DNA of 51,924 bases from Myxococcota bacterium (GCA_041288095.1 JBGGMJ010000210.1:1-51924), one strand, 5' to 3'; positions 20,756 to 35,663 are shown, counted from the stretch's first letter. Notes: a model not told the origin generated them from the sequence alone. Program-made: numbers and translations.

Positions 20756-21220
20756 CTAGCGGCTCGCCTCGAAGAGACCGTGCGCCTGCCGGGCAAGGGC
20801 GTGCGCGCGCTTCCCAGCCTCGGTCTGGGCCGTGGGATCCTCTTTGACGAGTTGCTGCAGGGTGGTGGCCGCAAGCGCCCACTGGCCGGTGGCGATCTCG
20901 ACCTTGGCGCGGGCGAGGCGGCCGTCGTAGCTCTTGGGCTCGAGCGCGAGCAGGCGTTGCACCTTCGTCATCGCCTCCCCCGACTTGCCCAGCGCGAGCA
21001 GAGTATCGATGGCCTTGATCGCGGCGGTGGTGTCCTTGCGGTCGAGCTCTTCGAGCATCTCGAGCATGACCAGCGCCCGTTCATCGTGACCGCCGTCGAT
21101 GAACATCTGCGCGCGCTTGCGCAGTTGTTGCACTTGCTCGGCCGACAGCTGCGCCAGCTCGCGCAGCTCGACCTCGCCGCGCAGGTACTTTTCGATATGT
21201 CCTTCGGATAGCTCCGCCAT
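20756..21220 (-). CDS. TPR protein resembling SycD/LcrH (class II type III secretion) chaperones
   Basis: 154 aa; YLRGEVELRELAQLSAEQVQQL...FIDGGHDERALVMLEMLEELD followed by TPR helices; GGAGG RBS; 9 nt downstream of the filament-like gene. Confidence 0.65.
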   Translation of the reverse strand: MAELSEGHIEKYLRGEVELRELAQLSAEQVQQLRKRAQMFIDGGHDERALVMLEMLEELDRKDTTAAIKAIDTLLALGKSGEAMTKVQRLLALEPKSYDGRLARAKVEIATGQWALAATTLQQLVKEDPTAQTEAGKRAHALARQAHGLFEASR

Positions 21221-21229
21221 AGCGTCCTC

Positions 21230-22954
21230 CTAGCTGTTCATGTTGCGAATGATCGCCATGGTGACGTCGTGCAGCACCTTCGAGATGTTCGACATCATCT
21301 GCAAGGTCTGCTGCTGCTTCTGCAAGCAGTTCTGCAGGTCGATGTTCGCGAGCTGCGCGTCGTCGCCGACGGAGTTCATCTGCTCTTCGAGGTACTTCAG
21401 GTAGTCGTCCATCTCGGCGACGGTATCGATGGTCTTGGCCGCGCCTGCTTGGGGGCCAGTGGTCTCAGCGGCGGTCTGGGCGCCTTTTTGCACCGCGAGG
21501 TTCTGGCGGCCGGCGAGGTCTGCTCCGACGAGACGGCCGCGCTCACCAAGACGCCCATGCGACTGCCCTGGGCTCGACACCACCTTGGGGCCCTCGAGCT
21601 TCTCCTTGTACGCCGTGACGATCTCTCCGGCCTGGGCGGTGCTCAATCCACTGCCCGCGACCGTCACCTCGTCGCCCATCAGCTCGTAAGCGGCCCCCAC
21701 CAGGAGACTGTTGTATTCGGCGCGCTCCTCGACGCTGAACTCATCGTGCGGCTTGCTGCCCGCCGAGGGCGTGTACCAGAAGGCCGACCCGTCCGATCCG
21801 AAACCGGCCGCCGCGACGACCAGGCGTTGCTCGGGGCTCATCACGCGCACGAGCTCGAGGATGCCGCCCTCATGACCATGCTTCTCGAAGTTCTCGAGAA
21901 TCGGCACCAAGAGCTCTCGGATATCGGCCTCGCTCATCTTCGGAACCAGTTCCTTGAGGTCCTCGAAGATCGACTTCTCGTTGCGAATCTTGTCGTTCTT
22001 CACCCCCGAGATCGTCTGGACCCAAGCCCTATCCTCGGGCTCGAGCGAGTTGCCCTCCCAGAAGTCGTTCGCGGCGGGGGCGCTTTCGTTGTTGGGCTCA
22101 CCGTCCTTGCCGATGAGCTCTCCCTGCTGCCTGTCCTTCTGCTCGTCGAGCTCTTCCTGCGTGTACGTGGCGGGGATGAGCGCAAGCTGGGCGCCATCCA
22201 CCTTCACCGGTGCGTAGAGATAAGGTGCGACCCAGTTCTCGTCGCCCTTCGCCGCGGTCGCCCACTCGCTCTTCATCTTGCGCGCCCGGTCCGCCTCTTC
22301 GCGGATCTTCTTCTTGAGCTCGTTGAGCGCCTTCAAACGGTCGCCGTAGAGCTGCAGGTCGGTCATGCCGAGCAGGTAGCACTCGCGCAGCACTTGCTGG
22401 ACGAACGCGTTCACGTCGCCGCCCTTGAAGTAGCCGCCGACGGCGACGCGCCATTCTTGCGCGTGGATGATTTCCTTCGCGTCGGTCTTTGCCGGGCGCT
22501 CGACGAGCACGCGGGCGAGCTGTTCGCCGGCGTCGCGCTCGAGCAGCGATGCGGCGACTCGCTCTTCTTGCGCATCGTAGGTCACCTGCATGTAGCCGTG
22601 GCGAACCTTGCTGGGGCCCCAGGCGTCGCGCGGGGTCACGCGGCTCTCGATCTCGGCGAGCACGGTGAGGACGCCGAGGTGCGCCTCGCAGCTCGCGCTC
22701 GTCGCATCCGCGCTAGATGCCAGGCGAAGCTCGGCGGCCGCGACGTCGCTGGTCGCGGTCAGCAGCGCGGCAAAAGGATTGGCGCCGGTGGCGGGCGCGG
22801 CTTCGGTCAACACAACCACGGATGCGGTGCCGCCAGCGCCGACAGTGTCCGCGACAGCGGAGGGAACGGTCGACGGGGCGCGCTTCTGCGCGGTCGGGCC
22901 GCTGGTGAAGGAGGAGAGTTTTTCGACGTTGGTGTTTTGAACCTTGCTGACCAT
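21230..22954 (-). CDS. Hypothetical protein with Bsp22/EspA-like (type III filament/tip) terminal helices
   Basis: C-terminus MNSVGDDAQLANIDLQNCLQKQQQTLQMMSNISKVLHDVTMAIIRNMNS; internal helix DVNAFVQQVLRECY...LKALNELKKKIRE; S/T/P/A-rich N-terminus; no Sec signal; GAGGAG RBS. Confidence 0.6.
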   Translation of the reverse strand: MVSKVQNTNVEKLSSFTSGPTAQKRAPSTVPSAVADTVGAGGTASVVVLTEAAPATGANPFAALLTATSDVAAAELRLASSADATSASCEAHLGVLTVLAEIESRVTPRDAWGPSKVRHGYMQVTYDAQEERVAASLLERDAGEQLARVLVERPAKTDAKEIIHAQEWRVAVGGYFKGGDVNAFVQQVLRECYLLGMTDLQLYGDRLKALNELKKKIREEADRARKMKSEWATAAKGDENWVAPYLYAPVKVDGAQLALIPATYTQEELDEQKDRQQGELIGKDGEPNNESAPAANDFWEGNSLEPEDRAWVQTISGVKNDKIRNEKSIFEDLKELVPKMSEADIRELLVPILENFEKHGHEGGILELVRVMSPEQRLVVAAAGFGSDGSAFWYTPSAGSKPHDEFSVEERAEYNSLLVGAAYELMGDEVTVAGSGLSTAQAGEIVTAYKEKLEGPKVVSSPGQSHGRLGERGRLVGADLAGRQNLAVQKGAQTAAETTGPQAGAAKTIDTVAEMDDYLKYLEEQMNSVGDDAQLANIDLQNCLQKQQQTLQMMSNISKVLHDVTMAIIRNMNS

Positions 22955-22969
22955 GACTGACTCCTCGAG

Positions 22970-23494
22970 TTAACGACTTTTGCGAACGGCTTCGGCGATG
23001 CTCTTGGCGTCCAGACCCAGCTCGCGGAGCAGCGCGCTCTGCTCCGCGAAAGCGGTGGCCATGGCACCTTCGTTGGCGTCGACGGTGCCGCGGTCGAGCA
23101 GCTTCACGAAGCCGACGACTTGCTCGCGAAGACCGGCGCGGGCCGCCGCCAGCTCCTCGTCGAGCGCCTTCCTCTTGGCGTCGATGTCCTGGCGTTTGGC
23201 GGCGAAGGCGTCCGCCTTGCCGGAGAGGAAGAAACGGATGGTGTCGCGGAGCTGGCTGGCCGTGTCCGCGGCATGCGAGGGCGTGGGCGCCGCCGCTGCT
23301 TCGCGCTGCACCAAGGGCTCGCCGCGCTCGAGCGACTTCTTCACCTGCGCCGTGGTCCGCCCAGCGCGCAGGGCCGGGTTCACCTTCAGCATCTTGCGAA
23401 CGACCTGCTCGTCGACCTTCATCTTGGCCGGTTCGCTACTTTCGCCGGCGGTCGGCTTGTTCATCGACGGGGGTTGCCAGCGCTGCTTCGACAT
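22970..23494 (-). CDS. Hypothetical coiled-coil protein
   Basis: Start moved to ATG 23494 (GAGGT RBS, downstream of the sigma54 motif); first gene of a three-gene operon. Confidence 0.7.
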   Translation of the reverse strand: MSKQRWQPPSMNKPTAGESSEPAKMKVDEQVVRKMLKVNPALRAGRTTAQVKKSLERGEPLVQREAAAAPTPSHAADTASQLRDTIRFFLSGKADAFAAKRQDIDAKRKALDEELAAARAGLREQVVGFVKLLDRGTVDANEGAMATAFAEQSALLRELGLDAKSIAEAVRKSR

Positions 23495-23524
23495 TGCCTG
23501 ACCTCGCATCATGCACCGAACCAA

Positions 23525-23541
23525 AGCAGGGTTCGGGCCAA
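23525..23541 (-). promoter_or_regulatory. Sigma54 (-24/-12) promoter
   Basis: TTGGCCCGAACCCTGCT: GG-N10-GC, 30 nt upstream of ATG 23494. Confidence 0.65.
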
Positions 23542-23670
23542 GCTGAAAAACCGCCAAAACGGGCTCGAATCGGCGGTTCCGTTCGTTCCGTGGCGGTTCG
23601 CGGCGCGCTTTGCGGCAGGCGCGTCGCAAAGTGAGACGCGATCGTGTCGCACGGGCTATAGTGCCGATCA

Positions 23671-24639
23671 ATGAGCGGTGACGGCTCTAACAAGGTTGGA
23701 AGGCGCTCCCAGCACTTTCACAACCATCAGATCCAGCGGACCAAGGCGCACCTCGCCTTCTCGCGGGTCACCGCCAAGGTGCAGCAGCTCAAGATACAAC
23801 GTGTGCACAACAAGCAGCTGCGCGAGCTGCGTATGCTCACCGAGCTGGTCGAAGAGGCGCTCGAAGAAGCGCGCCAGCGCGCCGAGCAGGCACTTCAAGA
23901 CCAGCGCTACGAAGTCATGCGCTCGGTCGACGCGGTCAAGCAGCAGCTCAAGAACCTGCTCGACTCGCTGCCGCCCGAGTTTGCCGAGCTCGAGGAGTGG
24001 GAGCAGCTGCAAAAGAAGCTGCTCAAGAGCGGCGAGCGTGACGACAAGAACACATTCGCGCGCGGAACCCAGATGAACGCCACGACCCGCAAGGAAGTTC
24101 ACCTCGGCGAGGTGAAGCGCTGGGTCAGCAAGACGGACACAAAGGTCGGCACCATCGCGCCGCGTCCCGGCATCATCAAGAAGGGTATGCCCGTCAAAGA
24201 CGACGGCACCGTGGACGCGGACGACAAGCGCGAGTCCGGCGGCACCGCCGAGGTGGGCGCGGTTGCTGCCGCTGAAACGGCGACCGACGAAAAAGAAGCC
24301 GACCGCCTCACCTTCCACAATGTCTGCGATGGCGTACGCCGGCGCAAACGCCGAGGCGAAGAGCTCGAGCCGGACGACATCGAGCTGGTGGCGGACCGCG
24401 CCTACGTGTTGATGCGCGAGCTACGAAACGAGCTGTCACCGAGCTGGAAGCCCGAGGAAGTGCCGCGCTGGTTGAACGCTGGAGACAAGTACGTGTTCGA
24501 CATGGCGCTGGCGTCGGTGCCCAAGGAGCTGTTCGAGGCGACGGCTGGGTATCAGGGGATCCAGGATCTGCGAAAGCAGCAGAGCGCGTTTACCCTGCGG
24601 GCGGCGGAGCAAATGGCGCAGGGGGTTCGGCGGACGTAG
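23671..24639 (+). CDS. Hypothetical protein with N-terminal coiled coil
   Basis: 322-aa ORF with GC3-rich codons; TATAGT 8 nt before the ATG. Confidence 0.75.
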   Translation: MSGDGSNKVGRRSQHFHNHQIQRTKAHLAFSRVTAKVQQLKIQRVHNKQLRELRMLTELVEEALEEARQRAEQALQDQRYEVMRSVDAVKQQLKNLLDSLPPEFAELEEWEQLQKKLLKSGERDDKNTFARGTQMNATTRKEVHLGEVKRWVSKTDTKVGTIAPRPGIIKKGMPVKDDGTVDADDKRESGGTAEVGAVAAAETATDEKEADRLTFHNVCDGVRRRKRRGEELEPDDIELVADRAYVLMRELRNELSPSWKPEEVPRWLNAGDKYVFDMALASVPKELFEATAGYQGIQDLRKQQSAFTLRAAEQMAQGVRRT

Positions 24640-35165: not shown

Positions 35166-35663
35166 ATGGAAGCGAGCTCATTTTCCACCAGCCTAGCGAA
35201 GGCCAGCGCTGAAGACCGCAAGGTCTACATCACCAAGAAGAACGGTGATGTCGTCGGTAAAGGCTTCTCGGTCCCCAAGGGTGACTTCTCGCGCTTCCTC
35301 GGCATGAAGGCTCCGACCCCGCAGGAGACCGCCGGCAACGTCGCGGGTTTCCGCGCCATCGAAGTCGCGCTGCAGAAGCAGTTCAATCAGGTCGGCCGCA
35401 GCGCCGTGAAGAACGGTTCGAAGTACACCAGCATCGGTGGCGCCCTCGGCGCTTTCGACAATGAGCCCGGCCGCGAGTTCGATGCCGCGGCGAACGGCCT
35501 GGACGCTATGAAAGACAGCGTCGAGCTCGGTCACGCGATGGGCATGCAGTACCTGGAAATGCAGTACAAGTTCCAGGTCGCGAGCACGAACTATGGCGCC
35601 ATCTCGAACATGATGAAGGCCCGCTACGAGACCGTGAAGAAGTCGCTCGACGGCGTTCGCTAG
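35166..35663 (+). CDS. Hypothetical protein with type III needle/inner-rod-like C-terminal helix
   Basis: MQYLEMQYKFQVASTNYGAISNMMKARYETVKKSLDGVR; strong RBS; no Sec signal. Confidence 0.6.
   Translation: MEASSFSTSLAKASAEDRKVYITKKNGDVVGKGFSVPKGDFSRFLGMKAPTPQETAGNVAGFRAIEVALQKQFNQVGRSAVKNGSKYTSIGGALGAFDNEPGREFDAAANGLDAMKDSVELGHAMGMQYLEMQYKFQVASTNYGAISNMMKARYETVKKSLDGVR

Follow-up and report, generated by a model that had tools for sequence, protein, structure and literature searches.

What does a three-gene operon encode when the end of its longest product resembles the needle protein of type III secretion systems (T3SS), with no gene of such a system on the same contig? The question is raised by positions 20756..23541, minus strand, of a 51,924-nt contig from a metagenome-assembled genome (MAG) of a soil member of the Myxococcota; this whole contig is referred to below as the window. 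The operon comprises three co-oriented open reading frames (ORF1, ORF2 and ORF3) for proteins of 174, 574 and 154 amino acids (aa), and an initial annotation had described it as a sigma54-driven unit for a Bsp22/EspA-like filament protein and a SycD/LcrH-like chaperone. Profile comparisons presented here show that the 574-aa protein closes, over ~65 residues, with a divergent SctF (needle)-like module. We hold it to be moderately probable that the operon specifies a T3SS-exported protein of the axial (needle/tip) class, in which the needle-like module is combined with a variable outer insert, and that the tetratricopeptide repeat (TPR) protein encoded by ORF3 is its chaperone.

The C-terminal module of the 574-aa protein

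The 574-aa protein is encoded by ORF2 (21230..22954, minus strand), and its C-terminal helix is exactly the one quoted in the initial annotation. The protein belongs to no Pfam or NCBIfam family, and only five orthologs, 46-59% identical to it, were found among 8,000 scored candidates. The SctF-like module occupies residues 510-574 (21233..21427, minus strand) and was recognized by profile searches and hhalign. When a module profile built from eight paralogs was compared with 177,635 distinct PDB sequences, needle proteins ranked first and made up 8 of the 12 matches at E ≤ 10. A profile built from 15 family members gave the same picture, with needle proteins again on top (8 of 14 matches). 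The best match of the 15-member profile was the 43-residue chain of 7y6c, a needle/co-chaperone complex (E 1.7e-6), followed by YscF (E 0.023) and PrgI (E 0.18-0.97). All the needle proteins aligned with the module at their extreme C-termini, and the alignment with YscF spanned both helices (profile positions 12-69 against residues 28-84). With EscF of the locus of enterocyte effacement (LEE), hhalign gave E 4.7e-4, and residues 38-71 of the module faced residues 36-69 of the 73 in EscF, i.e., the same C-terminal register. A profile of the other long helix of the protein (helix 1, see below) served as a control; none of its 22 PDB matches was a needle protein, and nothing specific emerged. The needle family model PF09392 produced sub-threshold matches in paralogs and relatives (E 7.7e-5, 1.3e-3 and 2.3e-2; 6.8e-3 and 8.2e-2; 0.014 and 0.032), the last two being those of the 74/75-aa needle-like proteins discussed below. 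Atlas features for residues 505-574 named LcrV (0.88), EspA/tip-complex (EspA/T3SS_TC; 0.86) and needle (0.84), all below the 0.9 bar and hence leads only.

Of the relatives that the initial annotation had envisaged for this end of the protein, SctF was recovered, and the searches for EspA and flagellin were negative. EspA identity was rejected, as hhalign of the module with LEE EspA gave E 0.53 and a probability of 0.1%, and no Pfam match to EspA (PF03433) was obtained in the 574-aa protein (E ≤ 1) or in the whole genome (E ≤ 10). Flagellin was absent from the module-profile PDB matches at E ≤ 10 and from the Pfam scan of the 574-aa protein, and the Atlas structural rows for flagellin stayed below the naming bar. 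In our best reading, the 574-aa protein is probably not a member of the EspA/Bsp22 family. What stands of the proposed Bsp22/EspA-like filament protein is an axial type III signature at the C-terminus; the likeness is to SctF, not to EspA.

The anatomy outlined earlier, with a low-complexity N-terminus, a helix near residues 200-240 and a C-terminal helix flanking an unrelated middle region, was borne out by an AlphaFold2 model (alignment of six sequences, mean predicted local distance difference test score (pLDDT) 54) and by the ortholog identities. Residues 1-183 (22406..22954, minus strand) form a disordered, Ser/Thr/Asn-rich N-terminus (pLDDT <50) with short conserved motifs, 32 of 158 columns being invariant among the six sequences. 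No Sec-type hydrophobic signal could be read from the protein sequence, and we infer that the N-terminus may act as a secretion signal or as a chaperone-binding region. Residues 181-235 (22250..22414, minus strand) make up the long conserved helix 1, predicted as a helix with pLDDT 61-87; helices of this type recur in paralogs and in distant family members. The variable insert, residues 236-509 (21428..22249, minus strand), contains a helical domain at ~300-455 (pLDDT 68-89 for residues 300-455) of no known family: Pfam, Foldseek and Atlas features gave no match, and the Atlas structural rows were weak only. Residues 159-235 and 510-574 are 66-95% and 77-98% identical, respectively, across the five orthologs; the corresponding values are 29-50% in the insert and 40-62% in the N-terminus. 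The C-terminal helix 512-573 and helix 181-235 have pLDDT ~60-87, and the latter is modelled antiparallel to the C-terminal module. The structural aligner VIA-align matched residues 178-574 as an antiparallel two-helix hairpin. Its matches (Z ~9-11), among them the stalk of dynein, the N-terminal coiled coil of IpaB, YscO and FliJ, were rejected as generic hairpins and not used as family evidence, because they lie below the tool's bar for helical proteins.

The operon, its promoter and the TPR protein

The three genes are separated by gaps of 15 and 9 nt and preceded by a −24/−12 motif, just as the initial annotation had read them. The sigma54-type promoter element TTGGCCCGAACCCTGCTT (23524..23541, minus strand), read from the sequence, includes the motif TGGCCCGAACCCTGCT at 23540..23525 (minus strand), in which GG and GC are canonically spaced; the ATG at 23494 follows ~30 nt downstream of this motif. 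Taken alone, the loose pattern TGGC-N8-TGCW is not rare: the window holds 8 copies where 3.6 would be expected, and a count of at least 8 was reached in 6 of 100 shuffles. The copy belonging to the operon is found again in both orthologous loci that include upstream sequence, unchanged in L024 and with two changes in L026. The genome contains no second copy of the promoter element (≤3 mismatches, GG/GC intact), and no sigma54-like motifs were found upstream of six paralogs. An rpoN gene is present in the genome (396 bits, above its cut-off). The GG/GC spacing, the conservation in orthologs and the presence of rpoN agree in marking this element as a putative sigma54 promoter.

Further upstream, at 23608..23630 (minus strand), lies a block with the inverted repeat TTGCG-N11-CGCAA. 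In the three-way alignment of the window, L024 and L026, the block is near-invariant and the spacer between it and the −24 element is variable; no second copy exists in the genome (≤4 mismatches). We consider it a candidate site for an enhancer-binding protein. No enhancer-binding protein is encoded in the window, where the sole AAA protein is of the MoxR type; a sigma54 activator without a receiver domain adjoins a paralog of the 574-aa protein on contig C82. A divergently transcribed gene for a 322-aa protein of no known family (window 23671-24639, plus strand) starts right at the conserved block, adjoins the operon in three loci and may share its regulatory region.

ORF1 (22970..23494, minus strand) encodes the 174-aa protein, which belongs to no known family (no Pfam, NCBIfam or PDB match) and has no paralog in the host genome. 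An in-frame ATG at 23512 would extend it to 180 aa, and this may be the true start, because the second ATG is missing from the orthologous locus L024. In all three orthologous loci, the gene for the 574-aa ortholog is immediately preceded by an ORF1 homolog (E ~1e-75), and the ORF1 product is a candidate co-chaperone or regulator. ORF3 has seven orthologs, all of 154 aa and 66-86% identical, on contigs that, by their matching lengths, are those carrying 574-aa orthologs. Since both the ORF1 homologs and the ORF3 orthologs accompany the 574-aa orthologs, the operon is real and conserved; its three genes and its promoter are found again at the orthologous loci.

The ORF3 product (20756..21220, minus strand) is a three-TPR protein (TPR_14, E 4.6e-8) and the candidate dedicated chaperone of the operon. 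Its NCBIfam matches, SctY (E 1.4e-5) and LcrH_SycD (E 7.3e-4), both fall below the cut-off; TIGR02552, for which 104.8 bits are required, gives it 19.3 bits, with an alignment over 3-132 of the 136 model positions. When compared by hhalign with eight SycD-like chaperones from Myxococcota T3SS loci, which themselves score E 1e-15 to 1e-38 on TIGR02552, it gave 97.5% probability and E 7.4e-12 over 142 of 154 columns, including the region N-terminal to the repeats. The AlphaFold2 model (pLDDT 89.4) shows three TPR pairs and a capping helix. We file the protein, on this sequence comparison, as a divergent relative of the T3SS chaperones of its lineage and not as a member of TIGR02552. The SycD/LcrH-like chaperone of the initial annotation is thereby retained in part: the protein is related to the lineage's SycD-like chaperones and has a generic three-TPR fold, but it fails the NCBI SycD/LcrH model.

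Type III secretion genes and needle-like genes in the Myxococcota

A non-flagellar T3SS core is present in the host genome (a MAG of 5.85 Mb in 212 contigs, 90% complete). It consists of SctV (850.8 bits, the cut-off being 692), SctU, R, S, T, Q, N, L and J, and a FliJ-like protein; in addition there are a FliK/SctP-like C-terminus and a weak SctI. Contigs C31, C41/C10 and C92 hold the sct genes. Among the 35 proteins scanned on the 51.9-kb contig and the secretin loci, none was an sct product. The operon is therefore located away from any sct apparatus, as had been noted, and the type III export apparatus that an exported subunit would use is encoded on other contigs. The contrast with the needleless T3SS* of Myxococcus xanthus, drawn in the initial annotation, needs to be modified, since this genome belongs to another order; it does encode an SseC-family translocator (E 8.5e-11, above cut-off) and several SycD/LcrH-like chaperones. 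Inside the non-flagellar T3SS cluster on C92, a FliG-like protein (FliG_M E 1.7e-6; L022 5671-6690) is encoded beside SctJ.

The 574-aa protein is not unique, being one of at least ten module-bearing proteins in the host genome. Close paralogs lie on C82 and C181, more distant ones on C10, C203, C188, C46 and C196, and a 185-aa member that was outside the profile training set (E 1.9e-12) lies on the T3SS contig C92. In 4 of 10 cases (the window operon, C10, C203 and C92) a TPR gene is directly downstream of the family member. The C10 pair, a 412-aa member and a SycD-like protein (LcrH_SycD E 2.3e-23), lies just downstream of sctU. The ends of C41 and C10 (L023 4272-5144 and L008 11245-11577) encode the same protein stretch; because they overlap, the sctU locus continues into the genes for a 216-aa protein, the 412-aa protein with its needle-like end and the SycD-like protein. 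On C203, a 393-aa member is followed by a tandem SycD-like protein (130.6 bits, above cut-off), the paralog thus standing before chaperone and SseC/SseD-like genes. On C92 (37389-37943, minus strand; L097 2389-2943), the gene for the 185-aa member is followed by that for a 138-aa TPR protein matching LcrH_SycD (E 1.8e-9), SctY (E 7.7e-6) and CdsG (E 6.3e-5); a 159-aa protein and a FliA/WhiG-type sigma factor are encoded next on the same strand. This pair is probably the best needle-plus-chaperone candidate in the genome. The C181 paralog, of 303 aa, is part of a conserved operon with genes for a chaperone, 242-aa, 270-aa and 797-aa proteins. Directly upstream of this operon, L006 8533-9102 encodes a prepilin-type protein that has a methylation motif at its N-terminus, which may be relevant to the reported cooperation between Tad pilus and T3SS*.

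On a wider scale, 227 of 230 candidates matched the module at E ≤ 0.001; they are 315-1005 aa long, carry the module at the extreme C-terminus and, as far as they are named (few are), are hypothetical proteins of Myxococcota or Deltaproteobacteria MAGs. An exhaustive profile search yielded 1,720 clusters at E ≤ 0.001 and 1,228 at E ≤ 1e-10, with lengths of 60-918 aa. We then have a family whose middles include EF-hands, DUF1521 and a calpain-type protease, and which also comprises stand-alone module forms of 72-111 aa; P0129 (870 aa) and P0131 (449 aa) contain four tandem modules in one chain.

Within the phylum, we sampled 201 genomes, 22 of the host's order and 179 of other orders, the tally including the unpublished G200, on which no individual claim depends. 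Strong module matches were present in 22 of 22 genomes of the host's order, with 1-13 copies each. In other orders only weak matches (E ~1e-6) were obtained, in 16 of 179 genomes, and 10 of these 21 weak matches lie 1-7 kb from a listed sctV match. SctV-like genes were detected in 177 of the 201 genomes, including all 22 of the host's order. In Myxococcus-like genomes of ~10 Mb, needle-like genes for 74/75-aa proteins are neighbours of sctV and of a gene for a SycD-like TPR protein (L094 4625-6167, with four tandem copies, and L096 5604-5828). Over 42 aa, the end of the 574-aa protein shares 48% identity with the 74-aa protein encoded beside sctV (pairwise E 1e-8). At L096 4228-5295, a 356-aa DUF1521 protein is encoded beside sctV, the TPR gene and the 75-aa needle-like gene. 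DUF1521, the self-cleaving domain of a rhizobial T3SS effector, also occurs in the module-bearing proteins P0015 and P0069.

A further gene with a needle-like end, one of the ten of the host genome, lies in the window itself. Positions 35166-35660 (plus strand) encode a 165-aa protein of no Pfam family with a needle-like C-terminus. Over 54 aa it shares 33% identity (pairwise E 6e-9) with a protein of equal length from a ~10-Mb Myxococcota genome (L095); that protein, too, has a needle-like end, and its gene lies directly upstream of SctI- and SctJ-like genes. The 165-aa gene is a second putative orphan T3SS-type axial gene on the contig.

These genes bear on the published view of the system. 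In the passages cited here, the T3SS of Myxococcales is described as having no secretin, SctF, tip or translocon, SctF having been lost (Abby and Rocha 2012, PMC3459982), and the T3SS* of M. xanthus, connected with predation, as 'needleless', with no secretin, needle or translocon (Herrou et al. 2025, PMC12075869); a paper on Bradymonabacteria likewise uses 'needle-less T3SS*' in the part cited (PMC11509652). The 74/75-aa needle-like genes beside sctV are at odds with the SctF loss in Myxococcales as stated in those passages. The SctF-like genes score below the threshold of the standard model and therefore may have been missed earlier; the small ones are candidates for needle proteins. A literature search for the module motif found no paper; supplementary gene tables may already list the small genes. 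A wider proposal would be that the T3SS of Myxococcota is not needleless and that standard models have overlooked a divergent SctF family, consisting of 74-aa tandem forms beside sctV, 165-185-aa forms by sctI-sctJ or a CdsG-like TPR gene, and long decorated subunits such as the 574-aa protein, whose variable outer domain between conserved helices, similar to that of flagellin, would provide the predator with interchangeable needle/tip surfaces; in view of the module in T3SS-free Bacteroidota and Asgard archaea, the needle protomer would have arisen from, or spread as, an older self-assembling module independent of the T3SS. As a whole we regard this proposal as speculative and rather unlikely, if attractive.

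Interpretation and comparison with known systems

If the operon encodes an exported axial subunit with its chaperone, the following course of events can be pictured. An enhancer-binding protein would activate the sigma54 promoter. The TPR protein, perhaps together with the 174-aa protein, would hold the amphipathic needle-like module in the cytoplasm and prevent its self-association, in analogy with YscG, EscG and CdsG, which attend needle proteins, or with the class II chaperones of translocators; the 174-aa protein might act as co-chaperone or as regulator. The N-terminus of the 574-aa protein would direct export via the T3SS encoded on the other contigs. Outside the cell, the module may dock into or onto a needle-like polymer of family members, with the variable insert facing outward. 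The 574-aa protein would then be a tip, an adaptor or a decorated-needle subunit that follows a flagellin-like logic of conserved termini around a variable outer domain. Alternatively, it may be a payload that uses the module as a handle, as considered below.

A number of results weigh against this interpretation. As for the module, the hhalign probability of its match with EscF is just 32.6%; PF09392 did not match the 574-aa protein or its last 60-80 aa at E ≤ 10, and all PF09392 matches in the family are sub-threshold (13.5-25.5 bits against a gathering cut-off of 29.4). Structure searches with the 574-aa model were uninformative, VIA-align giving the generic hairpins mentioned above and Foldseek of the whole model against PDB no match at E ≤ 0.001. 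As for the TPR protein, generic TPR domains came first in Foldseek, with SycD (2vgx_B) and the AcrH complex (3wxx_A) at ranks 30-31 (E 3e-3); its profile found only generic TPR proteins and no T3SS chaperone among PDB sequences (E ≤ 1), and it has no similarity to EscG or CesD of LEE, compared as single sequences. An sctC-type secretin was not recognised in the 90%-complete genome, where three secretins were found, of the PilQ, RcpA/CpaC and GspD types, none of them on the T3SS contigs.

The distribution of the module belongs to the same side of the balance and is the main caveat: the module is not exclusive to the T3SS. A scan of related loci (one genome per species, module alignment of three sequences) returned 61 loci with 52-98% identity. 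Many of them are in MAGs labelled Myxococcota, Deltaproteobacteria or Bdellovibrionales; the module is also present at 58-98% identity over 60 aa in MAGs labelled Thorarchaeota, Rikenellaceae, Terracidiphilus and Mariniphaga, and further labels include Armatimonadota, Burkholderiales and other groups. In the Thorarchaeota MAGs (L059, L080, L054 and L062), the module (~60-65% identity) follows a zinc-ribbon N-terminus and its genes adjoin housekeeping (ribosomal, translation) genes; in the Rikenellaceae MAG (L060, Bacteroidota), it lies on a 937-kb contig, behind a signal peptide. Several bacterial members begin with a Sec-type signal peptide. FHIPEP, present in 3 of 5 module-bearing genomes tested, is absent from the Rikenellaceae and Thorarchaeota genomes; because such genomes exist, the module evidently can function in some organisms that have no T3SS. 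Just 17 of the 61 loci have a gene for a TPR or SycD-like protein within 4 kb, and 13 of these 17 share one operon type that includes a SycD-like chaperone. Across domains of life the module is nearly invariant. Of the filament-subunit inference made initially, the axial signature holds, but the inference is weakened by the occurrence of the module in organisms without a T3SS gate.

These data would suit a rival explanation, in which the module is a general self-association or assembly domain independent of the T3SS and SctF is one of its relatives; the 574-aa protein would act in the cytoplasm or take a different route to the cell surface, with the TPR protein as an ordinary partner and not a secretion chaperone. 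Such an explanation would accommodate the 58-75% identity of the module in Thorarchaeota, Rikenellaceae, Terracidiphilus, Mariniphaga, Armatimonadota and other MAGs, the two FHIPEP-free genomes, the members with Sec signal peptides or a zinc ribbon, the proteins with four tandem modules, the scarcity of nearby TPR genes and the position of the window operon apart from sct genes. It is a serious rival, but we find it unlikely all the same, since module and SctV occur together in all 22 sampled genomes of the order, paralogs adjoin sctU and SycD-like chaperones, small relatives lie 1-7 kb from sctV in other Myxococcota, the TPR protein of the window is homologous to chaperones of T3SS loci, and the 574-aa protein lacks a Sec signal.

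Still less credible, in our view, is that the 574-aa protein is an effector whose insert is the active part, the module being a handle for chaperone binding, export sorting or docking at the needle tip and not a polymerising subunit. Differing middles on the same module (calpain-type protease, EF-hands, DUF1521), the DUF1521 protein whose gene adjoins sctV, a TPR gene and the gene for a 75-aa needle-like protein, and the 1-13 module copies per genome in the order would all suit a set of payloads. For the insert of the 574-aa protein, however, no enzymatic family could be recognised, the conservation of helix 1 goes with that of the module, which is also the case in axial proteins, and payload-free stand-alone forms of 72-111 aa exist.

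A polymorphic toxin with a C-terminal toxin domain and a TPR immunity protein encoded downstream was rejected as highly improbable: a conserved C-terminal domain on variable N-termini and a small gene directly downstream in the operon, its orthologs and L081 would fit such a pair, but a TPR gene is directly downstream in just 3 of the 61 loci, the Thorarchaeota neighbours are housekeeping genes, 60-98% identity across phyla is unlike toxin domains, some single chains contain modules in tandem, and T3SS chaperones are homologs of the TPR protein.

Returning to the exported axial subunit with its chaperone, what would follow from it rests on sequence inference. Should the module form an axial structure or cap one, then the T3SS used in predation would, after all, possess a conduit or adaptor. 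There would then be a large and variable repertoire of module-bearing proteins (~1,700 clusters; 1-13 per genome in the order), and it would offer candidates for the link that is missing so far from export gate to prey. A 60-aa module that is almost invariant across domains would, in addition, have implications for how needle proteins originated.

Among known systems, the SctF needles (YscF, PrgI, EscF, SsaG; PF09392) resemble the module in that its C-terminal helix aligns with theirs end to end, and the arrangement of a small TPR gene directly downstream of a needle-like gene recalls escF-escG of LEE. Unlike SctF needles, which are hairpins of ~73-86 aa, the ORF2 product has 574 aa, the module being the last ~65 residues, ahead of which come the disordered N-terminus, one additional long helix and an insert of 270 aa. 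Its gene also lies outside the sct cluster, it scores below the PF09392 threshold, and the module family, unlike SctF, extends to organisms without a T3SS; nor does the TPR protein show detectable similarity to EscG. With the class II chaperones SycD, LcrH and IpgC (TIGR02552), the TPR protein shares a length of ~150 aa, three TPRs and a capping helix, but its score falls below the cut-off of that class and generic TPR folds rank higher; the protein encoded next to it is needle-like-ended, and not a transmembrane translocator as is the cargo of class II chaperones. As in EspA/SseB (PF03433) and Bsp22, two long helices are predicted by the model to flank a middle region in a coiled-coil-hairpin architecture, and, like the EspA/SseB genes, the C203 paralog sits before chaperone and SseC/SseD-like genes, whereas neither Pfam (for protein and genome) nor hhalign supports an EspA relationship. 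Finally, although flagellin was matched neither by Pfam nor by the module profile, the 574-aa protein is like flagellin and the hook-associated axial proteins in that conserved terminal helices enclose a variable and presumably outward-facing insert.

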